Part shown: piece after piece, positions 33,986 to 59,663 of the stretch
How positions within the stretch are numbered: the first letter of the stretch is position 1
How the letters are laid out: each line of letters begins with the position of its first letter
Assembly (NCBI GenBank): GCA_043803945.1
Contig: JAZDJN010000101.1
Span: forward strand, 12,790 to 76,789
Origin: a bacterium
Lineage (GTDB): Bacteria; Bacteroidota; Ignavibacteria; UBA10030
Length of the DNA: 64,000 bases
Direction: 5' to 3'
Position numbers and translations under genes: made by a program
The notes under the pieces: model-generated
What the model saw: the letters and a program-made list of their open reading frames with translations, nothing else
Told to the model about the DNA's origin: nothing
The model's database searches: none

Positions 33986-36900
33986 TTACTTCGCTTCTGA
34001 GAGGCCGAAGAGATCCTGGTCGAATTTGAAGCTGAGGGAGACGAATGGGCCTTTGCTCCAGAGGGAATAGTCAATAAGATCCTGCTCTTTATAGCCCTTG
34101 AAGTTGTAGCCGGTGGTGAGGCGCAGATTCTTTGCAACGGCGTAGCCAAGCTCTACACTGTACCCGTTCAGCAGGTCATTCGCTTCAATCTGATGCAAGC
34201 CGCGATATTCTGCTCCGACACTCCAGGCCTCGCTGATGTTATAGTTGGCGTGGATGAGTCCAAAGAATGTATGACTGCTCGAGGCAAACGTTGGCGATTC
34301 TTCATCTGAAAGTTTGAATGCCGTTTTAATTGCGAGTTCGAATCTCCGTACCGGTTCAGTATATGCATGGAGTGAAAAGATCGTGGCCGAATTATCAATG
34401 TAGGGCTGGAGGTAGCGATTTGCATCGCCCTTGATCTCAAACTTCGCGATGGCATTGAAATCGTTCGACTCGGTCGGGCGATAGGCAAGCCCGGTAATCA
34501 AATGAGAGAGTTTCCGGTAGCCTGAGGACTTCGTCGAGATGTCATTAGCCAGCCGATATTTAAAGATGAAACCAAAATCGTTATGGAAGCGGTAATCGCT
34601 TGCTATAAAATAATTAATTTTTCGACTGATATAATCGTTAGCGAACTCAACCTTTGCACTTGCCTTCACTGCGGACTTCGGCAAATATTCCAAACCGCCG
34701 GAGATTGCATAATGATCCTGCGTGCCGATCTCACCGACACGCTTAATAAAGCTCTTCGCTTGCTCGAAACTTGCATTGCCGGAAAGGTCATCGGTGATTT
34801 TCACGGTATTCCTCAAACCAATGCTTCCCATATTGCGCTCGCCGGAGATCAAATTCCCGATCTCATATTTTGCAAAAACCTCTGTACCCTGGAATACTGT
34901 CGATTTAATATTAACACCGGTCAGAGAGCCGCCGCCTTCAACAAATTTATGCTGGCCGGCGATGGAAATCGATTGAATCGGTCTGTACTCCGCGATGACT
35001 GACGTGCCGTTGGGCCGTGCAAGATCCTGTTCCGATGCCAGGTTTCGTTCATGCTCGAGGCCAACACTGAAGCGGTTGGAAATCTGGAATGCGGAAGTCA
35101 GCGCTGCGAGCGAAGAGTGCGTTGCATCTTTCACTGTCGTCGAGTCAAGTGTCTTCGATTGGAGATCCTCAAAGCGGAACTTCCCCGTCCACCAGTCTGT
35201 CACCTTTGCCTCGAATGCCCCGAGCAGAGAGGTCCACTCCATCTTGCCCATAGGAAGATTTTGCGAAGCTTGATAATATTCCGTATGGATCTTGGTACCT
35301 TTGGAGATCTCGTAGGCACCCGTCAGGCCATATTTTTGAGAACCGAGTTCACGCCGTCCACCCGACTGGGTAATATTAAAGAATCCCACATCGACATTGC
35401 GATAGTACCCTTTAAGATTCAATCCTGTCGCGAGCATGGCATTCGATTCAACCTTATAGGCAATCCCGCTGCCATTGATGTTTGATGACTGGCCGAACTC
35501 GCTGAGAATGGAAAACTGGTCGTTGACCTGCAGTTTTGCATCAACTCCGAAGAGATAATAGTTCTTGGGTTCCTGTTGTTCTGTGATGCCGGTGAGTCCG
35601 ACGTGGATACTCTTCCCAAAATTTCGTTCAACCCGGCCGCCGGCAACATAGGAGCTTGCACCGTAGGTTTTCGCTTCGAAATGCACAACGATAAAGATGG
35701 GATTACCGGCAACATCGATGGCAGGCATCGGCTGTTTGAAGAAGAGCGAACCCTGTTCATAGTCGATGTCATAATCCTGGAATCGTGTCATCAGATCCCG
35801 CCTGATGAGAACCTCGGAGTGGAACCGGTCGCGTGTCTCAATCGTCACCTGCTCGGAGCCGGGAGTGATGGTGGTGTATCCAAGGAAATAGAAGCCGGAA
35901 ATCCCTTCCCCCCTCTTCTCGACCTGAACCTGCTTACGATCCGTGAGAGATCCGAAGCCACCGACCTTCCACTCATCATCCTGTAGGTTTGCTTTCACAC
36001 CATTCAGGGTTCTGTTATAAGCGGTAAATTCCTGTTTCGTGAGATCAGAGGTAAAGTCACCCAGGTGGATGTAGCTCATGTTCTTTTCGATCTTCGCGAA
36101 GAAGTTCCGATTCGTCTGTGCATCGTAGAAAAGCATGCTATTATCGCCATAGATCGTATAGAGATAATCGGGATCGACCTGGCGGAAGAACTTCGAATTA
36201 TCCCGACGATCGGTGTCCACTGACAACTGAAGCAGATAACCATCGCCGACGGTTCCACGGGCGTAGGCTGCCAGCCGTCCATGACGATTGAACTTCTCCG
36301 GGTAGGCATCGAACGGTGTTACACCGGTCTTGTCACCTTTGGCCTCGTAGTATCCTCCCGTGCCGGTGGCAAGACCAACAAGTGAAAATTGCTCTATCGG
36401 CGTTGTCAAAAGCAGATCTGAGCTTGCTTCTAAGTCGGAATATTTTGCTCTAAACACGATCATCCGGGGTGATGATCCCGCTTGAAACTCAAAGTGTGCT
36501 TCCCCTTTGACCAAATGCAACTGCAATCCTGGAGCATTAGGATCAAGATCCTTCGCAATAAGGATTCCACCGCTGTCCGCAGCCAATGTGACATTGATAT
36601 CCCGATCGATTTGAGCATTCCACCTATCATACATCAGCACAAGTCCATTGATTTTCGATTTTCCATCTGCACTTATGCTATTTTTTTCGAATTGGATTTG
36701 AAGCTCGACCGGTGAACCAAAGATGTGAATGTTTCGAATTTGAGATGCTACGTATTGACCAGTCCCTTCATAAAGCTTCAGTTCATATTGGACGGGACCT
36801 TCAGGAACGGTAACACCGATGAACTCTAACGCGCCATCAATTCTCACCTCAGACTTTTGTACGATTTTACCGTTGACCAAAAGAGAGGCAAAATGCCCAA

Positions 36901-37090
36901 TAGGAGCGGTTGCTATGACAGCTTGACTTCGAACATCACTTTTCAAACTATCTGGCGGATACGTGATAACGAATTGACTAAACGTCATAGGAGCGATTGT
37001 ACACAGCGCAACCAGGACAAAGAGAATTCTTACAACATCTCTTTGTCTGCTGGTGACCCAATTGCTATATGTATGGCTATGCGCTTGCAC
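33986..37090 (-). CDS. Predicted large outer-membrane beta-barrel protein with N-terminal Ig-like domains (putative usher-like translocator)
   Basis: Signal peptide; Ig-like start (ISADGKS..); core GRLAAYARG..YTIYGDNS..YNRTLNG..DYDIDYEQGSLFFKQP; about 500 aa of alternating amphipathic strands ending GPFVSLSFKFD. Confidence 0.75.
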   Translation of the reverse strand: MQAHSHTYSNWVTSRQRDVVRILFVLVALCTIAPMTFSQFVITYPPDSLKSDVRSQAVIATAPIGHFASLLVNGKIVQKSEVRIDGALEFIGVTVPEGPVQYELKLYEGTGQYVASQIRNIHIFGSPVELQIQFEKNSISADGKSKINGLVLMYDRWNAQIDRDINVTLAADSGGILIAKDLDPNAPGLQLHLVKGEAHFEFQAGSSPRMIVFRAKYSDLEASSDLLLTTPIEQFSLVGLATGTGGYYEAKGDKTGVTPFDAYPEKFNRHGRLAAYARGTVGDGYLLQLSVDTDRRDNSKFFRQVDPDYLYTIYGDNSMLFYDAQTNRNFFAKIEKNMSYIHLGDFTSDLTKQEFTAYNRTLNGVKANLQDDEWKVGGFGSLTDRKQVQVEKRGEGISGFYFLGYTTITPGSEQVTIETRDRFHSEVLIRRDLMTRFQDYDIDYEQGSLFFKQPMPAIDVAGNPIFIVVHFEAKTYGASSYVAGGRVERNFGKSIHVGLTGITEQQEPKNYYLFGVDAKLQVNDQFSILSEFGQSSNINGSGIAYKVESNAMLATGLNLKGYYRNVDVGFFNITQSGGRRELGSQKYGLTGAYEISKGTKIHTEYYQASQNLPMGKMEWTSLLGAFEAKVTDWWTGKFRFEDLQSKTLDSTTVKDATHSSLAALTSAFQISNRFSVGLEHERNLASEQDLARPNGTSVIAEYRPIQSISIAGQHKFVEGGGSLTGVNIKSTVFQGTEVFAKYEIGNLISGERNMGSIGLRNTVKITDDLSGNASFEQAKSFIKRVGEIGTQDHYAISGGLEYLPKSAVKASAKVEFANDYISRKINYFIASDYRFHNDFGFIFKYRLANDISTKSSGYRKLSHLITGLAYRPTESNDFNAIAKFEIKGDANRYLQPYIDNSATIFSLHAYTEPVRRFELAIKTAFKLSDEESPTFASSSHTFFGLIHANYNISEAWSVGAEYRGLHQIEANDLLNGYSVELGYAVAKNLRLTTGYNFKGYKEQDLIDYSLWSKGPFVSLSFKFDQDLFGLSEAK

Positions 37091-37098
37091 GTTTGCTA

Positions 37099-40000
37099 TT
37101 ATTGCGTCTTTACCTGGAGCATGAATGGTTGTGCATCTTCCTGCCGCTTCTCGCCGGTTTTCTGCTGCCGCTGAATTGTCATTCGACTGATGAGTGAACC
37201 TTTGGCTGCTACTTCATCTGTCACTTCTACTTCAAAGAGCAGGACGGTCGTTTCTTCGCTGCCACACTGAATCGTCAACGTGTTGCCGACTGTCGTAACA
37301 TCGGCTACACCCTTCAGTTTATAAATCGAATTCGGCACCAACTGCAATCCCTTTGCCAGCGAATCGACGACAACGGTCTGCTCAGCCATTGTGGCTGCGG
37401 AGCGATTCAATTCGAGATGCATAAAGAGCCGCTGGCCTTTGCTCACCGTCATGGTGGAATCAAACTGATCACGTCCGGCCTTCGGTACCAATCGCCGGCT
37501 TGCCACACCGGTCGAATCGATGCCACCCTCGGCAAACACACCGTTGACAAAAATATTTCGGAGAATTCTCATCTCGACCCGACGATTGCTCTGACGGCCA
37601 ACCGGTGTGGAGTTTGCTGCCACCGGCCGCTTCGAACCAAATCCCATAGGCTTGATCTTTTCTGGATTAATGCCGTAGGAGGAGCGGAGGTACTTTGCAA
37701 CCGTATGGGCACGGGCCATTGAAAGACTCATCGCTGCACTTTCGCCCTTCTCTCCAGCTTCTCGGGAATCTGTGTGGCCTTCAATAATCACCTGCGCTTT
37801 TCGATCCTGCGTGAGCATAATGCTCGCAATCTTTAATGCGGTAATATTCGTATCGATGATCGCTGACTGAGCTTCATTGAATAATATTCCGGAGAGCACA
37901 TAGTTCGAATTTCTGCTTCGAATGCCGATCGCGGTTTCCGTGCGGGTTACAAGTGTATCGGTTATCGTCACAGCGTCGTTGCCTATCCAGTAGGTCACCT
38001 TCTGGGTTCTGGATTTCAATGTCACACGATCGCTCCTCGGTGTCACGACATTCAGTTTATACTCCAGGGTCTTCTTGAAGCTGCGTCCGATCCCTTCGAT
38101 GCTCCATACTACTGATTGATCCTGGACGGAAGCCTTGAGAGGAGTACCATTGAGTTTGCCGCTTCCCTCGACGAACTGATATCCCTTGTCCAACTGATCC
38201 TGAATCTCGATCTTCGAGATCGATGCCGATCCTCGATAGGAAATTGGAAGTTGAATGGTAACAGAGAGCGTATCGAGGTTTTGCACTCGTTCCTGCTCCG
38301 TTTGAATATCGAATTCCACACGACGATTATTCGCACGTCCCTGCACAGTTGTGTTCGAAGCAATGGGCCGTGTCTCGCCGTAGCCGCGTGTCGTGATTTG
38401 CTCCGGAGTGCAGCCCAACACATTGACCAGATAATTCTTCGCAGCGTTCGCACGTCCATCCGAAAGCTCGAAGTTGTTCTTGAATTCCTTTGTGTTGATC
38501 GGCGACCAATCCGTATGCCCGGAGATGACGACACGCGTCCTGGCATTTTCCCTTAGCTGCTTGCCGAGTTGATTTAAGAGCGAGAATGCTGCTGGCTTCA
38601 GCACGGCTTTCCCGACTTCGAAATTCAATCCTGAGAGTGTCAGATCCGGCAGCCGTTCTTCCTGCGTGAAGACCAGGTTCTGTGGCTCGGCAATTCTTCT
38701 GATGGTTAACTCACCGGATGCCGCCACAGTCTTTCTCAAGAAGACCGGTTCCCACACAATTGTCGGTGTCAGGTCTTCGAGATAGAAATCGGCTCGGGCA
38801 ATACCGCTGGCAGGCAGCTTCACAAACCGCGACGCCGGATCGCCGGCAAATTCATTGTAGCCGACAATCAGGTTCGAGAACTTTGGCAATGACGCTTTTC
38901 GCACCATAATCACATGCTCACCCGGCTCGATATCCGGAATAGAGTACTTGCCATCATCGCCGGTAACGATCCGGATACCGCCCTCGGTAATAAGCTCCAC
39001 TCCCTTGATACCAACTTCGCCGAAATCCTGATGGGCATTCCGATTGCGGTCGAAGAACACCTTGCCGATGATGACGCCGCGCTCGGTAAAGAGCCCCCGT
39101 TGAATTTGGACTTGTTCCACCGCCGAGGCGCTGGAGACAATCACCTTATTCAGAGCATTCGCAAATGCAGTTGCAGTATTGATACCATCGCTCTCAATAC
39201 CACCGGCACCAACCACAAGGCGATACATAAATTCTATTGTTTCATTTGGTGCAATTGAATCAGCGACCAGGAATCGTAATTCACGAGTGCCGGTCGGCTC
39301 CGGAAGTTTCACAGTGCCGCGGTACGCTGAGTTTTCAACGTAACGGAACCCAAACGGAATACGATCGGCGACCTGAACATCCGTTAAGGTAAGGCCGGTC
39401 GTTCTGTTGGTGACTCTGATCTGATAGGTTACGATATCACCGACTTCAACCATTTTCTTCAGTGCGATCTTCACAATCTGGAGTTCCGGCACCAGGACTT
39501 TTGTATTCACGATTGAAGTCATCGGGTACGCTTCATTCGATGTCACCACTGCTCTGTTGACAAGGGTCAGCAATCCTTTGAGTGAATCGGCAAACCGCAC
39601 CGTGACAGATGCTGAGAACTTGTTCGCGGCACCGCCGACAGAGTCAAGTTTTCCAATACTCCAGACCACCCGATGATTTAAGGAATCGTAGCCGCCGCCA
39701 TTCGTCGCAGAGATGAACCGCATACGGCGGTCGAGCGAGTCGACGACAATCGTATTCGTTGTCGCTATTCTTCCGATGTTTGTCAGCGACACGCTATAGG
39801 TGACAGTGTCTTTTGCATTTGCTTCCGCCGGTCCATTCTTCACGAACGCAACTTCTGGATTCAGAATGATCGGTATGTTCACATTGAGAACATAGTGACC
39901 GCTATCGGGTAATGAGGTTCGAACAGTACCTTCAAGCAAGCCATCGTGGATACTGATTTCATATTTCCCTTGAGGCAAATCACCGAAGAGATACATCCCC

Positions 40001-43000
40001 AATGTATCGGTGATGGTCGAATCGAGCAGTGTCGAATATTCCAAAGCACTTGGAACTTTTGCCGGACGCTGATCAACGATTCGGTGCAAATAGACCTTGA
40101 TATATTGACCGGCTACCGGTTGACCGGAGACAATGAAGTACACCTTTCCGGAAATGAACGATCGGTTCAACACCGGAGGATGTCCTCCTGTACCAGGCAC
40201 CTCGACACGAACGATTGATCTCACGGGAACGGGCACACCGAACCGATCAAGCACCGTGATCACTACTCGGTAATTATCCGTTTTGGGCACGGGAATCATA
40301 TAATGGCCGTCTTGCAGCGTGATCTGACTACCAACGAACTGTCCTGTAGAAGTGAAGACCTCGACCAATGCACCTTCAACCGGTTGTTCAGTCTCATTAT
40401 CCATGATCTCTCCTGCAATGGCGCCCGGATAGAAAACGATATCAATCGAGGAAGAGGCATTGCAAAGATCGGACTCTGACACAGAAACAACAGCTTTTGC
40501 CGTCACAATTGAATTACTCGAAATAAGTGCTCTCAAGGAATCGATTGCATAGCCGTTCTTCGTCGGCACAGCCATGGAATCGAGACCGTTGGAATAGAAC
40601 CCGATATCAGTCTTGAAATGAACAATGCTGCCATCCGGTTTCGGATTGCCCAGCGTATCAGCAACAAATGCTTCAATACTCGCAGCCTGAATTCCATTAC
40701 CGATCACCAGAAGCGGAGTGACACGCAGGTGGATGGCGCACGACTTGTCGACAACGATGGCTCTTGTCCATATGACGGCGCGACCCGTATCTGCCCTGGT
40801 GGTGTCGATATAGCCGTACGCGATATTTGGAATCTGCTCATTGTGCGGACGATCTGATGGCACGGTTGCCACGACAAAAATTGTATCGCGCTGGAGAGAG
40901 AGCATCGAATCACGGCGTGCTGCAATGATGTTGTTTGCGAGTGCTGCATTATTCGAAACACTTACCGGCACCAGCGGAGCTTTCAGCGTGTCGAGAATTG
41001 AAACATTATAAATTGTATGATCGGATTTATTCTGGAAGATGATCCGGTAGTTTGCGTTCTCTCCGACCGTCACGACTTCTCGCTCTGCATACTTCCAGAC
41101 TTCAAGATCATCGCCGGATCCTGAGCCACCCGTCGGTTTGCGCGTAATGAAGATTGCCTGCGCGCGGCGCACTTCGCCTGGTAATTCTTTTGCCTGTGCA
41201 GTGACCGTATTCAGAATGCGGGTGTTCACCGGTGCATCCTGTTTCAGCCTGGCATCAATGAACACAGTATCCCGTTTTCCAACAGAGAGGGAATCGAGCT
41301 GATAGGTCACAATGTTGTTCGCCAACGCAGCATTCTGTGAGACTGAAACTCCAAGAATCTCAGCAGCAAGCGTATCTACAAAACTGATATTCGTTAATTT
41401 GACTTCGCCAGTATTGTGCAGGACGATTGTGTACCGGAGCGTTCCGCCAAGTTCCACAGTGTCAAGCGAAACAGACTTGCTGATTGCCAATTGCGGTACC
41501 AACACAACACCGCCACCCTGCTTCTTCGTGACGAAGATAGCTGTTGATCGTTTTAATTCACTTCCGAGTTCCCTGGCACCGGCATACGCTGTATTGCTCA
41601 CCTGTTGATTGGCGGCAACGGAGGAATCAACCTGAGCCTGAATAAACAATGTGTCGCGCTGACCAACCTTTAACGAATCGCGACGATAGGTGATGATATT
41701 ATTGTCAACCTGCGCTCCGGGGAACACTGCGACCGATCTAAGCTTGCTTGAGAGGGTATCTACCAGCTCGACATTCTTCAGTGTAAGATCGCCCGTGTTC
41801 TCCAGTATGATGGTGTAGAGTACTGTTCCGCCAAGTTCCACCGTGTCAAGCGAAACGGACTTGCTGATTGACAATTGCGGTACCAACACAACACCGCCAC
41901 CCTGCTTCTTCGTGACAAAGACTGCCGTTGACCGTTTCCACTCGCCTCCGAGTTCCCGAGCTCCTGCAAATGCTGTATTGCTCACCTGTTGATTGGCGGT
42001 AACGGAGGAATCAACCTGGGCCTGAATAAACAATGTGTCGCGCTGACCGACCCTTAACGAATCGCGCAGATAGGTGATGATATTGTTGTTAACCTGCGCT
42101 CCGGGGAATACTGCGACCGATCTAAGCTTGCTTGACAAAGTATCGACCAGTGTGATATTCTTCAGTGTGAGATCGCCCGTGTTTTCCAGGATGATGGTAT
42201 AGAGTACTGTTCCGCTAAGATCGACAGAATCCTTCGAGACGCTCTTGCGAAGCGCGATCTGCGGATGTGTCCCTGAGCCGGTCGATGTACCTCTGATATA
42301 GACGATCGCTTCAGCTTCGTACCATATATAGCCTGCTAATGAAGTGCCATTATCAGTCGAGGGTGCCACCAATTCATTTGCACTCGCCCACACGTCATTG
42401 ATAATCGTCTGATTTTCCTTCACTGTCGGGAGCACCCGTACCGGGATTTCAAATTGGAACGATTCACCGGGATTTAACAATTCTTTTGAATAGGTCACTA
42501 TCTGTTCGCGCTGACCGGCAGTTCCAGCATCGGAAAGAAGATCGATATACTGACTTGGCAGCGTATCAAGTACACTTATTCCAGTGAGAGGAGCCCAGCC
42601 TTTGTTCGTCAACCGGATTGTATAGAAGTAGAGCCCACCGATATCGACTGTATCCTGCGAGGCTTTCTTTGTCAGTTCAAGTTTGTACTGAACATTCTTG
42701 ATCAAGAGTGATGCCTGCGCAGACTGACCCTGGATCAATGAGGCACCGGCAGTTGCATTGTTCACAAGAGTGGTGTTTTCGGATGTCGTCACAACAGCGA
42801 GAATCAGGTACGTTTCATCAGCACCAACTCTCACGGTATCTTTTATCCAGGAAATGTTTGCACCGGAGACTTGCGGATTACCAGTAGCGGAGAGGAACGC
42901 CAATCCGACCGGGAGAACGTCGCTTACACGCACTGTCGCCAATGGAAGCTCACCGGTGTTTTGTACTTTCAACGTATAGGTAACAGTATCACCTTTACGA

Positions 43001-49053: not shown

Positions 49054-49066
49054 TTATTTCTAGGCC

Positions 49067-49093
49067 CGGAGTCGGGCAGCAAGCCCGGCTCCG
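49067..49093 (-). terminator. GC-rich stem-loop after the putative major subunit gene (mRNA stabiliser or partial terminator)
   Basis: cggagtcgggc-agcaa-gcccggctccg, about an 11-bp stem, with no U-tract. Confidence 0.55.
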
Positions 49094-49107
49094 AACATTA
49101 CAAATAA

Positions 49108-50856
49108 CTACTTCACAGTTACTTGAAACTTAAACCATACTTGTGTGCTAGCTGTCGTTGGGCCAGCTAGAGGGTTTTTTAGTGTAACCACAAGGTTTGG
49201 AGTGCTCCAAGTTACATCCGCATCAGCATTCGTTGTGGCTCCAGCAACAAACGCTGGGAAGGATACCCAGGCTGAGCCGCCATCTATTGAACTCTGAAAA
49301 GTTCCTGATGTTGTAATGAAATCAACGTACCCCGTTGGTACTGCGTCATTGATCGCTACTACGTATGCAGGCGCATGTCCAGTGTTTTGAATTTTGATTG
49401 TATATGTAATAACATCACCAGGTAATGGATTTGCTGGTGAAGCAATCTTTCCTACTACGAGCAGCGCCTTTAACGGTGTGGTAACACCTGTTACCGCCTG
49501 TGTCTGCGTTCCCGTTTGGGCTGTACCAGTCCAGGTAATAGTCACAGGTGTAAAATCTGTCGCACCGAATGGGATGTATGGAGCTACCCAAAACTCAACC
49601 GTACCACCACCTGAAGCCGGAACAGTGACAGTTACATTACCACTGTTATTGATCCAGGTGAACTTAGCGGCATTCGTTGAATCCAGGGTTGTTTGGGCAC
49701 CTACAGGAGACCAGTTCGACATCCACCAAGTGCCATCGTTTGAAATGACGACGTTGGTTGCTGCACTACGGTTGTTTGAGAGCACAACCCGATACACAAC
49801 ACCTGCCGAAACCTCATTGGAAGCGCTCGCTGTTCCAGCGAGTGATCCCTGGAGAGTACCGCTATAGTACGCCTGTATTTGCATCGTAAATCCACGCGAT
49901 GTCCACGCGGCGGTGGCGTCAACAGTAGGAGATTCAGCTCTAGTATGTTGAGTGCTCTGATTTGAATATGTTGCTGCAGTAGTGTAGTTAACTGCCGATC
50001 CATCACCAGCAGAGACCGTACCGGTAAATGTTAATGTTACCGAAGCACCCACTCCTAAACTTGGAATAGTCCAGGTTCCACCACTATAAGTTCCATTTAT
50101 TGAGCTAACTGAGGTAAGACCTGTAACCGTTAAAGGAATAGTAGTATTTCCATACGTGGCTTTGTCGCCATTATTCGTGTAGGTTACTGTATAGGTGATC
50201 TGTTCACCAGGAACCGGATTTGCCTCTGAGGTTGTCTGCCCAGTGACCGCGAGAATTGCCCGATCAATTGTAATATGATCGGTTCGTGGAGCTGGATTAT
50301 TACCATCACCAGTCTTTGCAGTAAAGTCGATTTGATTATCATCACTAATAGTAACACCAGCAGGAACAGTAACGACGGCCCAGATCTTTGTCGTGACATC
50401 AGAAGTTTGCTGATTTCCCCCCACTGTCTGTGCAATTGCTACAACATTGCCACCACCACCTAATAGTGGCTCCGTACCAGCAAATGGAACTACTCCGTTA
50501 GCATAGTAGTAGGTTATCGTCCAAGGACTACCCATTGATTGCACGGCTGTGATGGCGATATTATCATCATCATTCCCAGTATTCGTGACATTGATTGGGA
50601 TGGCGATGGTCTCATTGCCGTATGATGAATATGTAGCACCGGCATCGACTGAGACTCCGTATTTATGACCAACGGTTACGGAAATTGAAGCGACCTCGTT
50701 GGCGTAACTATTGAGTCCTGTAACATCTTTATAAGAAACCGTAGCTGTATTCATAATCACGGTTCCAGCCTTAGTTCCAGATGCTACAAGTGTATGTGTT
50801 GAGAATACGAGCAGTAAGGCAAGTATTCCTAACAGCAGAACATTTGAGTGTTTCAT
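49108..50856 (-). CDS. DUF11-domain secreted protein, putative major filament subunit (582 aa)
   Basis: Start reassigned to MKHSNVLLLGILALLLVFSTHTLVA (GGAG 7 nt upstream, signal peptide). The mature N-terminus is SGTKAGTVIMNTATVSY and the C-terminal DUF11 ends abruptly at FKFQVTVK. Confidence 0.85.
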   Translation of the reverse strand: MKHSNVLLLGILALLLVFSTHTLVASGTKAGTVIMNTATVSYKDVTGLNSYANEVASISVTVGHKYGVSVDAGATYSSYGNETIAIPINVTNTGNDDDNIAITAVQSMGSPWTITYYYANGVVPFAGTEPLLGGGGNVVAIAQTVGGNQQTSDVTTKIWAVVTVPAGVTISDDNQIDFTAKTGDGNNPAPRTDHITIDRAILAVTGQTTSEANPVPGEQITYTVTYTNNGDKATYGNTTIPLTVTGLTSVSSINGTYSGGTWTIPSLGVGASVTLTFTGTVSAGDGSAVNYTTAATYSNQSTQHTRAESPTVDATAAWTSRGFTMQIQAYYSGTLQGSLAGTASASNEVSAGVVYRVVLSNNRSAATNVVISNDGTWWMSNWSPVGAQTTLDSTNAAKFTWINNSGNVTVTVPASGGGTVEFWVAPYIPFGATDFTPVTITWTGTAQTGTQTQAVTGVTTPLKALLVVGKIASPANPLPGDVITYTIKIQNTGHAPAYVVAINDAVPTGYVDFITTSGTFQSSIDGGSAWVSFPAFVAGATTNADADVTWSTPNLVVTLKNPLAGPTTASTQVWFKFQVTVK

Positions 50857-51104
50857 AGTGAACTCCATTTGTGAAAAAGTTGAATTATGATTTATTGTTG
50901 TACTGTAATTCTGTTGAACATTGTGGTGCTTGTTACTCTCAATTCTATCCCTGATCGGTGGTGAAGAATCAGTGAATAGAGCTATGAACATTGGACCTGG
51001 AGATCGAGCTCTGTTGATCGGTGATCGCCTCGCTTGCATGATGATTGGTTCCATAATTGTTCTCCTTATATTTTTGTGTGATTAAGAAAAAGGATTACTG
51101 GTTC

Positions 51105-52235
51105 TCAGAAAATTACTTTATACCGCACGGTTCGTTCTTCCCCGGGGTTGATGATCGATTTAAAAGCCCATTGAATTTCTTTCACTGGCTCACGAGCAGG
51201 AGGGGCTGCTGCAGCGCGTATGAGCTTCACCTCCCCGCCTCCATTTTCCAAACTTCTCTCAATGAGCTTAGCCCCTTGCGGCAATGGATTTGAGACCGTG
51301 ATGTTGGAAGCCCCTGCTGATCCAATATTATGATATCGGAGCGTATAGGTTACAGTGTCTCCACCCTTGATTACTTCCTTACTTGCATTCAGACTTACTA
51401 CGATCTTCGGATCCGCCTTCCCCGACACTGCAAAGGCTTGCATAAGATTCGCTTGAGTAGTGACATGCTCTTTCGTTGATACTGTCGTCGCAGCGATTGA
51501 AAATTCCAATGCAGAAACAAGTGCATTGGCTTTAATTTCTTTCCCAGTACTGGAGACATTAAATGAAGCCCCTTGAATCTGAAGGTGTCCTCCTCCCTCG
51601 GCTTTCAGAACCATGACCGGATTCAATCGAAGTGTTGTATCATTAGAGGCAATCGTTATAACTTTCTCATCCCCTTTCAACACTCCAGTTGATTTTCCCA
51701 TAAACTTCAAATTCAAGTTCAATGGAGTTTTTGATTGAACAGAAAAGTTAAAAAACATTTTTTTCCCTGAGGGAGCATTCTGATCCGATTTCAAACCGAT
51801 CTCTCGAATCAATATGAAATCATAACCGGGGGTCTTCACAGCAAAACCTGAACGCAGAGAGGTTGGAGATGATTTTGTCTCCTTCGCAATTTTCTTCCAT
51901 GAATCTATCTCTTTTCCAAAATATTCATCAAGAGTGACATTCTTGATGAGAGCGTTCGATGCTCCATCACGCAACTCCAATACAGTGACTGATCCTAAGC
52001 GTTGGGAATCCTCTTTAAAAAGAATTCCGAAGCGGCCTGATTGGCTTTTCGGAAGGAGATCATCAAGTTTTCCCATCGCTACTGGGACGAAATCGCCATC
52101 AGCGATCCCTTGTAAGGTAATGGGAGCAGTTATTTTATATTGAGGGAGTTTCCACTCAATCGATCTCTGCGCTTGAGAGATTGATGCGAACATCGTAAGC
52201 GCAAGCAACACAACAAATATTTTAATACGTACCAT
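51105..52235 (-). CDS. Exported protein with a single degenerate C-terminal DUF11 domain (putative chaperone)
   Basis: Signal peptide; Lys-rich rather than Thr/Ser-rich; GDTVTYTLRYHNIG..VSNPLP..PGEERTVRYKVIF. Confidence 0.8.
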   Translation of the reverse strand: MVRIKIFVVLLALTMFASISQAQRSIEWKLPQYKITAPITLQGIADGDFVPVAMGKLDDLLPKSQSGRFGILFKEDSQRLGSVTVLELRDGASNALIKNVTLDEYFGKEIDSWKKIAKETKSSPTSLRSGFAVKTPGYDFILIREIGLKSDQNAPSGKKMFFNFSVQSKTPLNLNLKFMGKSTGVLKGDEKVITIASNDTTLRLNPVMVLKAEGGGHLQIQGASFNVSSTGKEIKANALVSALEFSIAATTVSTKEHVTTQANLMQAFAVSGKADPKIVVSLNASKEVIKGGDTVTYTLRYHNIGSAGASNITVSNPLPQGAKLIERSLENGGGEVKLIRAAAAPPAREPVKEIQWAFKSIINPGEERTVRYKVIF

Positions 52236-52261
52236 AAGAATACCTCCATTTATTAGTTATA

Positions 52262-55200
52262 CTAACGCACCTGATATTTATAAGTAATGGCTTTAGTCTG
52301 ACCAACATTTACCGTTGTTAGACTAATTGTAACTTGAGTTTCTGTAATCGTCACAACTCCACCAGAATCTGGTTGCGACACAGCATCGATCGTGATACTG
52401 GCTGGCACATATGTCACTGTCCCCGGAATGATATCGACAAAGGACACAAATCCAGCGGTCGCTCCACCATAATTATAGACTGTTACTGTATAGGTCACTT
52501 GGTCCCCAGGAAGGGGTGTTGAATTATTGGCCGTCTTTGCTATTGTCAATCTCGGCCTTGCTATAATTTTCGTCTTCGTCGTGTCACTCCGCGTCCAACT
52601 GCTCTGATGCGCGGCTTTAATGGATGACCAGTTAACGAACGAATCGACTGTGGAGGAATAAGCAGTCATGGTAACGCTTCCACTGCTCGGATTCAGTGTG
52701 CCGAGGTTCCACTCAACGGCCTGTCCGGTATTGGTACCGCCGCCGCTGCTCGCGATGTAGGTTAATCCTGACTGCAGTGTATCACGCAGAAGCATGTTGC
52801 TGAAGAAGGCATTTCCAGTCAACGAATAATTGATCGTATAAGTAATCGTATCTCTCGGTGTCGGCAAGCCATGCAATTCACCAAGCGCTGACGCTGACTT
52901 TGTAATCGTCAGTGTCGATGATCCAACAATCTGCGTCAATGTTGAATCGCGATAACTGCCGCCATTATTGGAAGAACCGATTGCTTTATTATAGATGTCT
53001 GTCGTACCTACCGGCATTGGATTATTCACTGTCACCTGGAAGGTGAAGACAAAACTCGTATCACCTGCTTGAATTGACGATGGTGTGGCACTGATCACTG
53101 TATTGTCTGGTGAATTAATAGTTGCACTACCCGTAAGCGAACTGGCAACATATGTTGTGTAATTTGGAATCGTATCATAAATCGCTATCGTCGTTAATGT
53201 GTCCGTGCCAATATTTCCGTACTTAATCGTGTAGGTAATCGTCGAGCCCGGTGTGTTGCCAGTCGCCGAAGCGGTCTTCCGTATCCATAACCGAGGTGCG
53301 GAGTACACAGTGGTCTGCACGACGTTGCTGTTATGCATGTTTGTAAGCTTGGCCGTGATCACATGCGCAGTGTCTTTGATGATAGAATTGTTATCAATAT
53401 TGCCGATGACCCGTAACTGAAATTCCACCGTTTTTGATGTACTCGACGTCACGGTTCCAACATTCAATCCAGTTACAACCGGAGAATTCCCACCGATATC
53501 ACTTTGCAGCACGTTATTCACTTTTGTGGTGTTCGGGATGTACGCCAGTGTCGAAGGAACCCAATCAGTGATATAGGTCGAGTCGGCCGCAACGATGGTT
53601 GAGTTCGAGATCACGATCGAATACTTCATCGTATTGCCGGCATAGATGGTCGTGCTATCAACCGACTTCACGACTGCAAGCTGCGGATAGAGAACATTCG
53701 TTAATGCTGTGTTCGATGTGAGAGCAGAAATTCCGTTCGAATAGATCACAGCCCGATTTTGAAGCTGCGAAACACTATTGAGCGTCATCGGCTTTGGCAG
53801 ACGAACCTTCAGAATAACAGAATCCGTCGCACCTACCGCAACCGATCCGAGGCTCGTACTATCCCATTTCACCACAATGCCTGAGAATATGCCGCTGCGG
53901 TTTGCGCTGACAAAGAGTGTCGATGAGGGAATCGTATCTTTAATAGAGACACCGTATGCTCTTGCGCTGCCGGTGTTGGTGTATTTCAAGGTATAGATAA
54001 GAGTGTCCGCTGGGCCGACACTTGTCACATTCACACTCTTCACCAGTGTTAAATGCGGAATATTTGCCACCGTATCACGAGCAAAGGACGAGAGATTCGT
54101 CGCTTCATCATTCGTAAGACGAGCGGTATTGGTAATAACGGTATCATTCGGTGCACCGCTGTCGATGGTAACTTTAAAAGTCACGCTCCCGTTTGAGTTG
54201 GCATTGACGGTTCCAAGACTCCAGACCACTCTCCCTCGCGGCGAAGGAGTAGCAAGGAAACTTCCACCGCCCGTTGCAGAACCCGCTACATACGTCATGC
54301 GACCGGGAATCGTGTCGGTAATAATCGTGTTCGTTGAAGCAGCAACACCCGGTGCATTGGAATAACTGATCGTATAGGTCAACTCTGTACCAACAGGCGC
54401 CTTCGTTACGTTCACACTCTTGTTTAACGTCATGCTGGGCGGCGATTGAATCACGGTAGCGACGGTATTGGTATAGGTCGCCGGCGTCGTATTTAATGCA
54501 CCTTTATTTGGAATCGTCACATTGGCGGTAATAACTCTCGCCTTAATCGTAATGGCAATGGAAGTACCATTTGGAATATTCGTTCTCTGCCAACTCAATG
54601 CCTGGCCATTCTGAGTGAAGGTCATGCTCCCATCGTTGGATTGCGATACGAATGTGAGGTACGTGGAGAGTGTATCGACAATCGTTCTGGTAATATTTCC
54701 ACCGGTATTGTTGACATAGTTCAGTGTATAAGTCAGTGTGTCGTTCTGGAATCCCGTGGTCTTCTCGACCGTCTTGTTGATTGACTCAATGCCTGAAGCG
54801 ATCGTAATGGGCAGCGTGGTGGCGACAGTGTCTTGAAGGGCGCTCACAAGGACACCGCGTGCTACGGCCGTATTCGTGTATGTCGCATTTCCCAGCGCTA
54901 CCTTTGCTCGGAAGATCAAGGAGTCTTTGACACCAGGATTAATTGACTTGGCGGGTGAGAATCTCCACCGGACAGTACCCGTTGCACCCGCTATCGGTGA
55001 TGACGTTGGCGACAATGATCCGCCTGTCGTACTGACATAGCCGAAACCGCTTGGGAAGATATCAACGAGCGTATCGAGCGTCGCAGCATAGTAACCGGTG
55101 TTATGAAGAACGAAGGTAAATGTCGCCGTATCGCCAGCCGCATAGATCGATTTATTGGATTTCTTTGTCAACGCTACGACCGGGATCGCTGTCACATAGA

Positions 55201-57673
55201 GCGTTGCCTGCGTTTGATACGGATTGGTCACATCCGATCTAATGACGGCAATATTATTCAGCGGCTGATTGGAGCCTGGTGTCGGATAGGGATTGGCCAC
55301 TGTGGCCTGGAACGAGATCGTGTTGTTCAAATTGCCGCCGCCCGGTGTAACTGTTCCGGCGTTATAGACAAGGATTTGTCGGAGCGGAGTTAACACGGTA
55401 TCGATACGCGTCGGGGCCGGCGTGGAAGTGCCGACTACATAGCGCAACGTTGATGGCAATGTATCGTTGATCACAACATTTGGCGCGTCGGCGGTACCGA
55501 CGTTTCCATATAATAGAGTATAGGTGACGTTATTTCCCGGATTGGCATTCGCCGGGCTGACCGATTTCGAGATATTCATTACTGCACCGAGAACATTACT
55601 GCTCACTGTATTGCTAATCGCTGTGTTCGGCAAATTAGATGCAGCGAGGTTTGCCGTGTTGATAAGAGGATTTGTTCCTGAATAGGGATTTGTCACCTGG
55701 AACGTGATCGAAACGCTGCCTGAAGCAGAAGCAAGGAGATTCCCAAGACTCCACGTCACTTTTCGTGTCGAGGAGTTGTAGGATCCTCCGCCTGTTGCAG
55801 AGACAAAGGTAATACCCTGTACCAGGGAATCGCTCAGTACCGCAGACTTGAGTGTATCAGAGCCGGTGTTTTGATAATTGAGTGTGTAACTGTACTGCGA
55901 TCCTTGCACAAGGCCGGCCGGCGTTGAAACAGATTTTGTTACCGCGGCGGAGACCCTGCTAACCACCACGGGAGCAACATTCAATGCCGAATTAAAGAAT
56001 GTTGAACCTTTCGCAGAGATAGAGTTGTAGTACGTTCCTGAATTTGTATCCGCCAGAACTGTAAACACTAATGTCTTGCTCTGTCCCGCTGCGATAGTAA
56101 ATCCACCACTCCAAGTCCACCGGACAGTCCCTGTTGCATCCAACGAAGGAGAGGTTGTGGGAGGATAGAGCGTACCTCCCGTCGTACTTTGATATTTGAA
56201 TCCCGTTGGAAGAACATCAGTCAATGTATCGATCTTGATTGACGTTGCTTGGGGATTTGTGACAGTAACAGTATAGGTTACTGTCCGGGCAGCCGGAGGA
56301 TCATTGGCAATGACGATGGACTTATCGACTGTTTTCGCCATCGTTGCAGGAATGATACCGCAATTGTTATCGACAACTGCGTAAATGTTATTGTACTCTG
56401 CAACGGTCTGATCGTATGAATCGGCAACATTATTTAATGTGTCATTTGCAATGACCTTAATGAAATACAATCCGCGCGGAATAGAATCTGTCTTCCAGTT
56501 GTATGACCATACACCCAGGGTTGTTGGCGTACCATAGCCGATCAGTGTCCATGTTTTTTCAACCTCATCCAGGACTCCATTCCCGTTGATATCAAGTGCG
56601 TAGTAGAATTTTGTATCGACAACACTGCTGACAACCTGCTGCGTCGCACAACTTCCTGAATTGAGTACCCGCTGCGCAGTCAGAATGGAGGTGGTCAACT
56701 GCACTGTCGGGCAGTAGGTCGCCGCTACGGTCATCACAACAACCTTGGCGAGATTCTCATTACCAAAGTTAATCGGATCACCACCCGCCATAATACCGGT
56801 TGTGCTCGCGCAAAACGCACCGACGTAGGCAAAATCTTTTTGGAAGGGATCATTGAGACTGTTTGCCGTAGTGAAAGATGCTGAAAACACCGAACTCGAT
56901 CCCCAAGTCGGTCCGCCCCAGGGTGCAGCATCGAATAAAGCAATGGGAATTTGGAAATCAAATAAGTAATCTCCGTTGGATGCTGTTGCGTTGATAATGC
57001 GGCTAGTCCCAAAATCGAGCGTGTCTCTTCCGGTTGACCAATTTGCACCAATGGAATTTCCATCCTTATATCTCACCAACTTGTTTGCAGAATCCCGTGC
57101 AGCATACTGCTGGCCGATTCTATAAATACTTGGATTCGCAACGTAATCGACAGATTGGGTTGTGGTCAGAGCGGAATAGATAACCGAAATTCGATCGATG
57201 ACATTACCGCTCGTTCCAGATGATCCATCGAGAAATACTGCAAAATCCCGCCAGCCATCACCATTGACATCGAGGAATAATGTCCAGAGTGCCGAGTTCC
57301 ATGGATCACTGTTAGCAACATTGCCATAGTTATAAGCATTGGGATCACTTTCGAGCCTGATCCTCACAAAAATTCGTGTACCATCATATGAGACATAAGC
57401 ACTGGGGAGCGACAGATCGGGAGTGCCAGATGAAATATTGGCGATGTTTTGTGGACTAGTACCTCCATTCGATTGATCTTGTGTTTTGGGATCCGCGAGT
57501 GCATTCCCTTTCAGTGTGTAAGAGACCCATGAGGAATTGGCAGGCCACGCACCGGGAGAAAAGATTGGAGATTGTCCTAACATTTCTAAGCAAGAAAAAG
57601 CCAAAAGGAGAAGAACACTCAGAGAGAGTTTTCTCCAGGATTTTTTCATCAATGATTTATTATTCTTGCTCAT
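52262..57673 (-). CDS. DUF11-repeat adhesin-like protein (unique N-terminal head plus about 11 DUF11 domains)
   Basis: Signal peptide; ~400-aa Trp/Asp/Cys-containing head (LDVNGDG, LDINGNG); tandem DUF11 domains, the last ending at ITYKYQVR. Confidence 0.88.
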   Translation of the reverse strand: MSKNNKSLMKKSWRKLSLSVLLLLAFSCLEMLGQSPIFSPGAWPANSSWVSYTLKGNALADPKTQDQSNGGTSPQNIANISSGTPDLSLPSAYVSYDGTRIFVRIRLESDPNAYNYGNVANSDPWNSALWTLFLDVNGDGWRDFAVFLDGSSGTSGNVIDRISVIYSALTTTQSVDYVANPSIYRIGQQYAARDSANKLVRYKDGNSIGANWSTGRDTLDFGTSRIINATASNGDYLFDFQIPIALFDAAPWGGPTWGSSSVFSASFTTANSLNDPFQKDFAYVGAFCASTTGIMAGGDPINFGNENLAKVVVMTVAATYCPTVQLTTSILTAQRVLNSGSCATQQVVSSVVDTKFYYALDINGNGVLDEVEKTWTLIGYGTPTTLGVWSYNWKTDSIPRGLYFIKVIANDTLNNVADSYDQTVAEYNNIYAVVDNNCGIIPATMAKTVDKSIVIANDPPAARTVTYTVTVTNPQATSIKIDTLTDVLPTGFKYQSTTGGTLYPPTTSPSLDATGTVRWTWSGGFTIAAGQSKTLVFTVLADTNSGTYYNSISAKGSTFFNSALNVAPVVVSRVSAAVTKSVSTPAGLVQGSQYSYTLNYQNTGSDTLKSAVLSDSLVQGITFVSATGGGSYNSSTRKVTWSLGNLLASASGSVSITFQVTNPYSGTNPLINTANLAASNLPNTAISNTVSSNVLGAVMNISKSVSPANANPGNNVTYTLLYGNVGTADAPNVVINDTLPSTLRYVVGTSTPAPTRIDTVLTPLRQILVYNAGTVTPGGGNLNNTISFQATVANPYPTPGSNQPLNNIAVIRSDVTNPYQTQATLYVTAIPVVALTKKSNKSIYAAGDTATFTFVLHNTGYYAATLDTLVDIFPSGFGYVSTTGGSLSPTSSPIAGATGTVRWRFSPAKSINPGVKDSLIFRAKVALGNATYTNTAVARGVLVSALQDTVATTLPITIASGIESINKTVEKTTGFQNDTLTYTLNYVNNTGGNITRTIVDTLSTYLTFVSQSNDGSMTFTQNGQALSWQRTNIPNGTSIAITIKARVITANVTIPNKGALNTTPATYTNTVATVIQSPPSMTLNKSVNVTKAPVGTELTYTISYSNAPGVAASTNTIITDTIPGRMTYVAGSATGGGSFLATPSPRGRVVWSLGTVNANSNGSVTFKVTIDSGAPNDTVITNTARLTNDEATNLSSFARDTVANIPHLTLVKSVNVTSVGPADTLIYTLKYTNTGSARAYGVSIKDTIPSSTLFVSANRSGIFSGIVVKWDSTSLGSVAVGATDSVILKVRLPKPMTLNSVSQLQNRAVIYSNGISALTSNTALTNVLYPQLAVVKSVDSTTIYAGNTMKYSIVISNSTIVAADSTYITDWVPSTLAYIPNTTKVNNVLQSDIGGNSPVVTGLNVGTVTSSTSKTVEFQLRVIGNIDNNSIIKDTAHVITAKLTNMHNSNVVQTTVYSAPRLWIRKTASATGNTPGSTITYTIKYGNIGTDTLTTIAIYDTIPNYTTYVASSLTGSATINSPDNTVISATPSSIQAGDTSFVFTFQVTVNNPMPVGTTDIYNKAIGSSNNGGSYRDSTLTQIVGSSTLTITKSASALGELHGLPTPRDTITYTINYSLTGNAFFSNMLLRDTLQSGLTYIASSGGGTNTGQAVEWNLGTLNPSSGSVTMTAYSSTVDSFVNWSSIKAAHQSSWTRSDTTKTKIIARPRLTIAKTANNSTPLPGDQVTYTVTVYNYGGATAGFVSFVDIIPGTVTYVPASITIDAVSQPDSGGVVTITETQVTISLTTVNVGQTKAITYKYQVR

Positions 57674-58133: not shown

Positions 58134-59663
58134 ATGAAACATACACTAATTCCATTTCTGATTGTCATCATGCTGCTCAGCCTCAACACATCATCGGCGC
58201 AGTTCAAAGACCGGGGCACAGAGGTTGGTATTTCTATCGGCGGCTTTATCGGCGATAATGAAGGGCCTAAGGAGATAACAGATTTTCAGGTGAAAAAATT
58301 CTTCCTCGGTTGGGCAAATACATTCCATGCAAGAATTTTCCTGGATTATCCGCTCGCTTCAAACCTTCGGGGACAATTCGGTGCGGGTATTGGACAGCTC
58401 AGGGGGAAGTATTATAAAAGCTCACTCATCCCGATCGACTTACGCCTCTCTCTCTTCCCTTTCAATACAGAGAACATACATCCCTACGGATATCTTGGCA
58501 TTGGAGCAGTCCGTTATGAATGGGAATCCCCGGCATACCGTGTGACTCCCGGCGCCAGCAATAAAAGTTGGGACGCGATGGTACCGCTGGGTGTTGGTGT
58601 TCTTTATCCTTTGAACGATAACCTGACGATGGATTTCACCGGCGGCTATACATTCGGACTCAGCGATGATATCAACGGCCACCGCGGCGGCTGGAACGAC
58701 TCCTGGTGGTCGGTAACGGCGGGAATCAGGGCGCCCTTGCCAGCAGGTGATAGTGATAAAGATAAAGACGGCTTGACTGACAAGGAAGAAAAACAGTTGG
58801 GCACCAATCCAAAGGCTGCCGATACTGATGGCGATGGATTAAGTGATGGTGATGAAGTAAAGAAATATTTCACCGATCCGCTTAAAGCCGACAGCGACGG
58901 AGATGGACTGAATGATGCAGATGAATTGAATCGCTACAAGACCGATCCTCTGAAAACCGACACCGATGGCGATGGTCTCAACGATAAGGAAGAACTTCTT
59001 ACGTATAATACTGAACCGACGAAACGAGACACTGATAATGACGGTTTGAGTGATTATGATGAGGTCATGAAGTTTAAGACCAATCCATTAAAAGCTGACA
59101 CTGACGGAGATGGCCTTTCGGATGGTGAGGAAGTGATCAAGTATAAGACCGATCCGCTGAAACGCGATACCGACAATGGAAGTGTGGATGATGGGACAGA
59201 AGTGAAGCGCGGCTCGAATCCCCTCGATGCAAAAGATGACGTTCCAGTGGCACCAGTCGTTCCGGTAATACCGATTGAGAAACCGGTCACTCCGAAGACC
59301 ATCGAAGTACCAAAACAGGCCGCGAAGGAATTCACGTTCGAGACGATATACTTCAAGAGCGGCAGCGCCTATCTGAATGCAGCGGAACTCGCAAAACTCA
59401 AAAAAGCTGTTGAGACGCTCAAAGAAAATACCGGGATTAAACTTGAACTCTCTGGGCACACCGATAGCATCGGCAAGTTGGGTCTGAATATGCGGCTCTC
59501 GAAAGCTAGAGCAGCTTCGGTTAAAGAATATCTCGTCAAGAAAGGTGTTAAAGAAAATCGGCTTGAGTCCAAAGGATGTGGCCCTGAAAATCCGGTGTCA
59601 GGAAATAATACACCTGAAGGACGAGAGAAGAATCGACGCGTCGAAATTAAAGCAGTGAAGTAG
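58134..59663 (+). CDS. OmpA-family protein: N-terminal beta-barrel, Ca-binding DTDGDGL (TSP3-like) repeats, OmpA C-terminal domain
   Basis: Signal peptide; barrel strands; about 7 D(T/S)DGDGL.D..E...Y.T.P repeats; GHTD..LSKARA..NRRVE. Confidence 0.93.
   Translation: MKHTLIPFLIVIMLLSLNTSSAQFKDRGTEVGISIGGFIGDNEGPKEITDFQVKKFFLGWANTFHARIFLDYPLASNLRGQFGAGIGQLRGKYYKSSLIPIDLRLSLFPFNTENIHPYGYLGIGAVRYEWESPAYRVTPGASNKSWDAMVPLGVGVLYPLNDNLTMDFTGGYTFGLSDDINGHRGGWNDSWWSVTAGIRAPLPAGDSDKDKDGLTDKEEKQLGTNPKAADTDGDGLSDGDEVKKYFTDPLKADSDGDGLNDADELNRYKTDPLKTDTDGDGLNDKEELLTYNTEPTKRDTDNDGLSDYDEVMKFKTNPLKADTDGDGLSDGEEVIKYKTDPLKRDTDNGSVDDGTEVKRGSNPLDAKDDVPVAPVVPVIPIEKPVTPKTIEVPKQAAKEFTFETIYFKSGSAYLNAAELAKLKKAVETLKENTGIKLELSGHTDSIGKLGLNMRLSKARAASVKEYLVKKGVKENRLESKGCGPENPVSGNNTPEGREKNRRVEIKAVK

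Follow-up and report, generated by a model that had tools for sequence, protein, structure and literature searches.

Complementary split ends in a five-gene DUF11/CLIPPER operon of an ignavibacterial genome suggest a modular, self-locking surface fibre

In a stretch of 64,000 nucleotides from a bacterium of the Ignavibacteria (UBA10030; assembly GCA_043803945.1, contig JAZDJN010000101.1, positions 12,790 to 76,789; hereafter the window), five genes form an operon whose products have complementary ends. Three proteins stop inside their last DUF11 domain, and two begin with the very hairpin that those cut domains lack. We consider it probable, at roughly 65%, that the products of the operon build a modular fibre on the surface of a diderm cell, namely a giant adhesin made of DUF11 repeats (renamed CLIPPER in a 2025 survey of isopeptide domains, PMC12617251) that has been cut into separately secreted and re-joined pieces. 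The genes are co-directional on the minus strand and separated by short gaps, and their coordinates agree with those of a first-pass annotation made from the sequence. P0001 (57673..52262, 1803 aa), the putative distal head or 'tip', has a signal peptide, a ~410-aa head and ~11 DUF11/CLIPPER domains; P0002 (52235..51105, 376 aa) has a signal peptide, a ~250-aa domain without a family match and a truncated CLIPPER domain; P0003 (50856..49108, 582 aa), a putative adaptor or possible shaft, combines a hairpin (donor) with a truncated domain (acceptor); P0004 (49053..37099, 3984 aa), the putative base, has a signal peptide and a donor hairpin and is devoid of a truncated last domain; P0005 (37090..33986, 1034 aa) consists of two Ig-like domains and a giant outer-membrane barrel behind a signal peptide. 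Signal-peptide-like segments open all five proteins; in P0003, the signal peptide belongs to the 582-aa form, which starts at Met67 of a 648-aa open reading frame (ORF; 51054..49108). The Pfam matches in P0001-P0004 are DUF11 and its sister families DUF7507, DUF7619 and DUF7927 (PF01345 bit scores of 302, 34.4, 63.1 and 975.7, respectively, for a cut-off of 24.6). In NCBIfam, all four match TIGR01451, and P0001 and P0004 also match TIGR04226, 'isopeptide-forming domain-containing fimbrial protein'.

The three acceptors lie at 52265..52555 (P0001, residues ~1707-1803, with Lys1713 and Asp1747), 51108-51407 (P0002, with Leu in place of Lys and Asn in place of Asp) and 49111..49473 (P0003, with Lys470 and Asp504 in the numbering of the 582-aa form), all on the minus strand. 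Their C-termini, ..ITYKYQVR, ..VRYKVIF and ..WFKFQVTVK, are as the first-pass annotation had quoted them when it claimed that these proteins stop short of the last hairpin. The last domain of P0001, aligned to a profile of 11 complete 120-residue repeats from P0004, occupies positions 3-82 of 120, with 3 more residues up to the C-terminus; on a wider profile of 17 complete domains of P0001 and P0004 (121 positions), it occupies positions 2-85, ending 1 residue before the protein does. We ran this wider profile over all ORFs of 80 related loci, the best among 422 relatives found with P0005 as marker in one genome per species of 185,579 bacterial and archaeal species. A last domain ending at most 6 residues from the C-terminus was found in P0001 and in 61 ORFs of the related loci, and it stops at position 81-86, just ahead of the Asn-bearing strand, in P0001 and in 60 of the 61, the remaining one stopping at 96. 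Internal domains run to position 100 or beyond in 494 of 568 cases, and the sole generic DUF11 control that qualified ends at position 118. When the rule was relaxed, 132 ORFs from the 80 loci and the window were found to have a truncated last domain, and in every one of them all 29 tail positions are empty.

The donor hairpin of P0003 (50662..50781, minus strand) comes directly after the signal peptide, reads SGTKAGTVIMNTATVSY ... ANEVASISVTV and bears Asn36 (582-aa numbering). That of P0004 (48865..48975, minus strand, residues 27-63) reads QTAAGTQIDNICTVQY ... SNIASVFVA and bears Asn36 as well; both N-termini had been quoted correctly. On the 11-repeat profile, these orphan hairpins cover positions 81-112 (P0003) and 83-113 (P0004), so that donors start at 81-83 and acceptors stop at 82-86. 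This complementarity of the ends is far beyond chance, and the proposed logic of an acceptor-only 1803-aa protein, a 582-aa protein with donor and acceptor and a donor-only 3984-aa protein is borne out. We derived a donor model from 92 hairpins of other loci; among the five window proteins, it matched best residues 27-63 of P0004 (E 1.9e-10) and residues 93-131 of P0003 (E 1.4e-8), and the N-terminus of P0001 did not match it. The donor motif resembles the tails of internal domains, and Ile8, Asn10 and Gly21 of the P0004 donor are invariant in 16 orthologues.

The residues expected to form an isopeptide bond follow the same division. In the complete repeats, K8, N29 and D42 are invariant in 17/17 internal domains and N96 is present in 16/17, in agreement with the repeat pattern first proposed. 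The available text of the CLIPPER survey (PMC12617251) describes, for the structure 9IFR, an intramolecular Lys715-Asn806 bond assisted by Asp748. Our 17-domain profile aligns with 9ifr_A (E 1.9e-5), placing K8, D42 and N96 on the motifs VVKTT, LNDTL and VVNKV; a single repeat searched against the PDB missed 9IFR, the match needing the 17-domain profile. At the junctions this triad is divided between proteins, with Lys1713/Asp1747 on P0001 and Lys470/Asp504 on P0003 versus Asn36 on the hairpins of P0003 and P0004. Asp504 is invariant in 30 P0003 orthologues, in which Lys470 and Asn36 are kept in at least 90%, and the donor Asn is invariant in the bases (16/16). The conservation of an orphan catalytic pair and an orphan Asn on separate gene products is hard to explain unless they meet. 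The initial proposal that every junction is isopeptide-sealed has, however, to be narrowed: the triad positions speak for it in the P0001 and P0003 acceptors and against it in P0002, whose family of 18 has Asn (14) or Gly (4) at the Asp position and combines Lys with Asp in 0/18 members. Lacking Lys and Asp, this family cannot be bond-locked, and in its members from loci L003-L064 the motif NP[IV]P replaces D..P.

A structure prediction brought one donor and one acceptor together. The first-pass annotation had suggested predicting such complexes in trans, and we folded the last 129 residues of P0003 (17-row alignment) with P0004 residues 27-66 (16-row alignment). The pair passed, with an interface score (ipSAE, interaction prediction score from aligned errors) of 0.82 (runs 0.79, 0.82 and 0.82), and the controls were clean, the best of three scoring 0.00; in the calibration of the tool, the mark was reached by 58/80 solved complexes versus 2/110 mismatched pairs. 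Contacts agree between the runs to at least 96%, and the partner has a predicted local distance difference test (pLDDT) score of at least 86. In the predicted complex, donor residues 8-19 (first strand) pair with the Asp-bearing strand of the P0003 acceptor and donor residues 28-36 (second strand) with its Lys-bearing strand A. The acceptor itself reaches a pLDDT of 88-89 with the donor versus 67 and 73 beside unrelated partners.

We infer the subunit order, the covalent bond and the roles of the barrel and of P0002 along the following lines. From distal to proximal, the fibre would consist of the P0001 head with its long stalk, the P0003 adaptor, the P0004 base and the P0005 barrel, the base being tied to peptidoglycan via two OmpA domains and the barrel holding or passing it in the outer membrane. 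The pieces would be re-joined outside the cytoplasm. At a junction, the two-strand N-terminal hairpin of the proximal protein would complete the CLIPPER domain in which the distal protein breaks off; the acceptor would contribute the strand-A Lys and the catalytic Asp and the hairpin the Asn, and completion of the fold would lead to a spontaneous intermolecular Lys-Asn isopeptide bond, no sortase being needed. P0002 would be a third acceptor; most likely, its binding to a donor hairpin would be reversible and make it a cap or placeholder. The polarity is supported by unsplit relatives, which carry the P0001 head at the N-terminus and OmpA at the C-terminus, as does the source protein of 9IFR. 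The 582-aa protein had been cast as a polymerising shaft; its donor and acceptor are both present, but polymerisation does not follow, as the collinear gene order and the unsplit relatives fit a 1:1:1 stoichiometry at least as well and favour a head-adaptor-anchor chain over such a shaft.

The arrangement recurs in the 80 related loci, which are labelled as Ignavibacteriota/Bacteroidota-type metagenome-assembled genomes, Neomarinimicrobiota, Fidelibacterota, KSB1 and others. The recurrent order is a large acceptor-only protein, a small acceptor-only protein, a ~600-aa donor-plus-acceptor protein, a large donor-only protein and the barrel, while five loci without the small protein read tip, adaptor, base (L001, L002, L010, L011 and L026). 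A donor ORF follows within 400 nucleotides in 74/129 acceptor ORFs. The donor/acceptor asymmetry is retained in homologous operons, as judged from the 132 truncated-end ORFs. Two or three tandem donor-plus-acceptor paralogues per locus occur in L076, L025, L047 and L058. A search for a fused P0003, that is, tip-adaptor or adaptor-base in one chain, retrieved generic DUF11 giants only. Among closer relatives the distribution is patchy, P0005 being present in 4/30 related genomes searched (2/18 in the family, 2/12 in the order). A second, less regular type of operon has the barrel ahead of a large acceptor-bearing protein. In this type, an Asn in the donor and an Asp in the acceptor tend not to coexist in one protein: a donor with Asn goes with an acceptor with Asn, and a donor with Ser with an acceptor with Asp. 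Loci of this type (L027, L033, L036, L039, L042, L045-L048 and L057) have a ~300-aa gene, a ~630-aa donor-plus-acceptor gene, the barrel, a 2200-3300-aa protein whose truncated last domain is devoid of Lys and Asp, and a P0002-like gene, in that order.

P0004 has, according to Pfam, 24 DUF11 stretches together with Ig-like, CarboxypepD_reg and SdrD_B domains and, near the C-terminus, two OmpA domains (window 38323-38622 and 37558-37833, minus strand). These peptidoglycan-binding domains fit its proposed place as the base. Two OmpA domains were found in 3/6 base orthologues scanned, the others including forms that end in a hydrophobic segment and basic residues. The short base orthologues of L024 and L025 show a hydrophobic stretch followed by Lys/Arg-rich residues and no OmpA domains, a tail that may be an alternative, membrane-embedded anchor. 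The stalk of P0004 is itself repetitive: ten 120-residue repeats near the N-terminus share 54-77% mutual identity, and residues ~2263-2646 (window 41134-42267) comprise three ~128-residue repeats, the first two 85% identical and 48-52% identical to the third. Such identities suggest recent duplication and a stalk of variable length. Compared with the TasA/camelysin family PF12389 (Peptidase_M73), P0004 scores 31.5 bits summed over its repeats, no single stretch passing.

P0005 had been described as the 1034-aa barrel, and the structure model (pLDDT 81, predicted template modelling score 0.67) agrees, showing two Ig-like domains (~40-230) followed by a very large barrel of ~36-40 long strands (236-1024) with a small conserved insert (~394-463). 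Neither P0005 nor this insert matches a Pfam family. Foldseek with the model returned only large barrels, at low template modelling scores. A second structure search, made with the whole 1034-residue model, was topped by the usher FimD (9fxs_D, Z 16.1, root-mean-square deviation 6.9 Å over 319 residues) and then PapC (2vqi_A, Z 15.0, 6.4 Å over 315 residues), nearly tied with porins (Z ~14) and SlpA (13.9). Usher scores of 15-16 so closely trailed by porins and SlpA did not lead us to call P0005 an usher. The barrel family is large, with 3042 representatives at E ≤0.001 and 1257 at ≤1e-30. In 108 of the 149 top relatives of P0005 the barrel is the C-terminal part of a protein of at least 1250 aa; 61 of these 108 fused relatives have a donor hairpin right after the signal peptide, with the Asn in 56 of the 61, and none of 25 stand-alone barrels has such a hairpin. 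The fusion of donor hairpin and barrel in one chain indicates that the barrel and a donor-tipped stalk belong together, encoded in the window by two genes. Most barrel relatives are single chains of 1300-3300 aa with a signal peptide, a donor hairpin, an Ig-like stalk and a giant C-terminal barrel (P0183-P0316; L082 and L083), an architecture reminiscent of autotransporters, although the barrel belongs to no Pfam family. A metagenome scan with a fused relative gave two loci, both cut off upstream and readable only for the downstream neighbour; at a distant two-gene locus of the fused type, the protein encoded next, downstream of the barrel gene, has a truncated last domain that bears Lys and Asp. 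We infer that P0005 may serve as a conduit for folded subunits, in line with the export channel first proposed, or as a mere anchor.

For the ~410-aa head of P0001, Pfam at E up to 5 and the PDB searched by sequence gave nothing usable, and Atlas searches with the head and with P0002 gave scores all under 0.9, leads at best. The head recurs, however, at the N-terminus of 45 giant DUF11 proteins (31-39% identity) that carry other anchors: a tail of the type IX secretion system (T9SS; P0123), C25 peptidase domains, IPTL-CTERM (P0162) or OmpA (P0164, P0166 and P0167). The last three and the source protein of 9IFR are unsplit counterparts, with head, stalk and OmpA anchor. The head also tops ~3300-3700-aa DUF11 proteins with a C25 (gingipain-type) peptidase domain (P0128-P0161), labelled Thermoanaerobaculia. 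The N-terminal part of P0002 matches no Pfam family. Small acceptor-only proteins of the related loci comprise 18 P0002-like and 15 others, and Neomarinimicrobiota and KSB1-type loci have a ~160-aa protein at the place of P0002.

The operon is flanked by housekeeping genes (MetH and a zinc alcohol dehydrogenase) and by an outer-membrane protein gene on the opposite strand, so that the five genes stand alone. The latter gene (window 58134-59663, plus strand, divergent to the operon) encodes an OmpA-family protein with six TSP3 calcium-binding repeats, and an SLT lytic transglycosylase is encoded 3.5 kb upstream of the operon (window 61141-61929, minus strand). In the host genome (5.54 Mb, 100% complete), DUF11-like domains occur in only 4 of 4588 ORFs of at least 150 aa, which are P0001-P0004, and donors and acceptors must therefore find their partners within the operon. 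A scan of the region for promoters and terminators gave promoters at shuffle level (16 found, 16.0 expected) and was not used. In one groundwater metatranscriptome run, contigs of at least 95% identity cover parts of the operon, the longest (982 nt) spanning the end of P0002 and the start of P0003, which tentatively suggests transcription; two of three RNA runs had no contigs on the operon, which is no proof of absence. Another contig of the RNA library (depth 3.1; window 53631-53711) has, compared with the window, A in place of G at nine sites within 81 bases, which could be a strain variant, damage or editing.

Several points weigh against the reading of the operon as a covalently re-joined fibre. 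The prediction covers one of six possible donor/acceptor pairs and its output consists of contacts, without coordinates for the Lys-Asn-Asp geometry; besides, a split domain can pass a complex test merely through likeness to intact solved domains. An AlphaFold2 monomer of P0003 (pLDDT 69) models its own hairpin as two strands with block-mean pLDDT of 77-90, and this hairpin may dock in cis; completion in cis is impossible for P0001, which has no donor, and for P0004, which has no acceptor. Across loci the triad is also imperfect. Another residue stands at the Asn position in 15/49 donor-plus-acceptor proteins, and Lys and Asp occur together in 28/49 of them, some misses being alignment gaps, and in only 30/50 tip-class acceptors. 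The adaptor donor is without Asn in L002, L004, L008 and L073, while the tip, where seen, keeps Lys with Asp or Glu in L002, L004 and L073; these exceptions yield no clean rule for matching donors to acceptors. The expression evidence is weak, as DNA carry-over is possible in a single RNA library, and the reading would require a folded, cross-linked chain to cross the outer membrane.

The same data can be read as a true pilus, with P0003 polymerising head to tail into a shaft, P0001 or P0002 capping its distal end and P0004 at the proximal end. P0003 does have donor and acceptor with Asn, Lys and Asp, the tandem donor-plus-acceptor paralogues make junctions within one family plausible, and the small acceptor-only proteins would be sensible caps for surplus chain ends. 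Yet the data do not separate self-pairing of P0003 from pairing with its neighbours, the gene order is collinear with a 1:1:1 chain and still reads tip, adaptor, base in loci without a P0002-like gene, and unsplit single-chain relatives exist; in the second operon type, the mutual exclusion of donor Asn and acceptor Asp argues against covalent self-polymers. We regard a polymerising shaft as unlikely.

Complementation might instead be non-covalent, as in chaperone-usher pili, with Lys, Asp and Asn merely inherited from the intact domain and no bond at the junction. Many related donors and acceptors lack one member of the triad, and the P0002 family lacks two, which means that non-covalent junctions must exist in the system; moreover, oligomers of the clostridial protein BsaA devoid of the Asn are still resistant to sodium dodecyl sulfate until heated, according to the available text of PMC11580942. 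By contrast, the near-invariance of Asp504, Lys470 and Asn36 in P0003 orthologues, and of the Asn in base and fused donors, means that buried polar residues are conserved over two genes, a pattern difficult to account for without chemistry. Isopeptide domains split by design at the strand with the Asn or the Asp (isopeptag, SpyTag) also react spontaneously, which counts against a purely non-covalent junction. We judge it improbable that these junctions go without a bond. Finally, the ends might not be partners at all, the truncated domain being a stable shorter Ig variant and the hairpin serving as a signal for export or targeting to the barrel, contributing a strand to the first domain of the protein that carries it or, in P0003, folding onto the C-terminal domain of that protein. 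Donor hairpins do sit exactly on barrel-tied proteins (bases and fused forms), and the monomer model gives the P0003 hairpin high confidence. But the same cut position in 60/61 terminal domains, with the hairpin beginning there, the match of the donor motif to internal-domain tails and the trans fold of 0.82 versus 0.00 all oppose this explanation, which leaves the orphan Lys/Asp pair and the orphan Asn without a reason for their conservation and the tip proteins without the supposed signal, even though they too must be exported. We find such unrelated ends highly improbable.

The proposed re-joined fibre shares features with several known systems and differs from each. In line with the first-pass annotation, which had proposed sealing without a sortase, PF04203 has 0 matches in the complete genome, and no LPxTG occurs in the five proteins. 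T9SS C-terminal domains (Por_Secre_tail), likewise said to be absent, were not found on the five proteins by Pfam and NCBIfam scans. The genome has at least 150 such sorting domains (150 of 185 candidates scored), with none on the contig of the window among those listed; the T9SS cargo set of this 5.5-Mb genome is very large, and the DUF11 operon lies outside it. The Pfam matches of the five proteins include no PapD-like chaperone or usher family, and no known autotransporter family was matched in them; in the window, passenger and barrel are encoded by different genes. Chaperone-usher pili (type 1, P) resemble the proposed fibre in that the N-terminal extension of the next proximal subunit completes an Ig fold, in their acceptor-only tip and in their dedicated outer-membrane barrel; here, the extension is a two-strand hairpin, the link is probably covalent, the subunits are multi-domain giants and the barrel has ~36-40 strands versus 24. 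Gram-positive sortase pili have the same tip-shaft-base logic, Cna-type Lys-Asn bonds and covalent subunit links, but those links are made by a sortase at LPxTG. In isopeptag/pilin-C and SpyTag/SpyCatcher, a Cna-type domain is cut, leaving one reactive residue on a short peptide, and the parts react spontaneously; these pairs are man-made, whereas here the split is natural and conserved and would build a surface structure.

Among fibrillar adhesins with an OmpA-like anchor, the fibre resembles the source protein of 9IFR, Acinetobacter silvestris B9T28_05395, which, as described in the available text of PMC12617251, has the CLIPPER family, the triad columns, an N-terminal head, a stalk and a C-terminal OmpA anchor in common with the proteins studied here; it is, however, one polypeptide with an intramolecular bond, while here two domains are divided between genes and a bond would connect separate proteins. 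Neither 'split' nor 'donor' occurs in the available text of that survey. The principle of locked assembly is found in Clostridium perfringens BsaA (TasA family), in which an N-terminal segment inserts into the next subunit in a sortase-free 'donor-strand exchange and lock'; according to the available text of PMC11580942, Asn35 lies on the donor and Lys74 and Glu56 on the acceptor, and mutants lose oligomers. BsaA differs in being a Gram-positive homopolymer of another fold family, joined by one strand instead of a hairpin, with no outer membrane or barrel. The archaeal thread filament Saci_0406, as presented in the available text of PMC9715654, likewise combines donor-strand complementation with an intermolecular isopeptide bond, is Sec-secreted and has a neighbouring gene proposed to encode a cap; unlike the proposed fibre, it is an archaeal homopolymer not made of CLIPPER domains, linking the N-terminal amine of subunit n+2 to an Asn of subunit n. 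In open-access papers and preprints, we came across no account of diderm proteins being joined by a CLIPPER or Cna-type domain that is split in nature; a type XI secretion system paper ranked first for 'DUF11' was set aside, as it names the domain once, in passing.

Beyond this operon, we give an even chance to a broader proposal, that of a large undescribed class of diderm fibres in which a donor-tipped stalk stands in its own giant barrel, fused or adjoining, and separately secreted split-CLIPPER modules plug in and lock by a self-catalysed Lys-Asn bond. Such a class would amount to a natural SpyTag/SpyCatcher system with exchangeable heads, in which the bond-less acceptor P0002 would act as a reversible cap or as a hairpin chaperone. 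If the reading of the operon is true, it would add sortase-free, covalently locked fibre assembly to the repertoire of outer-membrane bacteria, a principle for which the only reports so far concern a Gram-positive matrix protein and an archaeal filament. Protein engineers could then draw on the related loci for numerous natural and perhaps orthogonal peptide/domain ligation pairs. The reading would also explain why giant adhesin genes may be split into pieces, and it would give a testable job to a big unannotated family of barrels with its 3042 cluster representatives.

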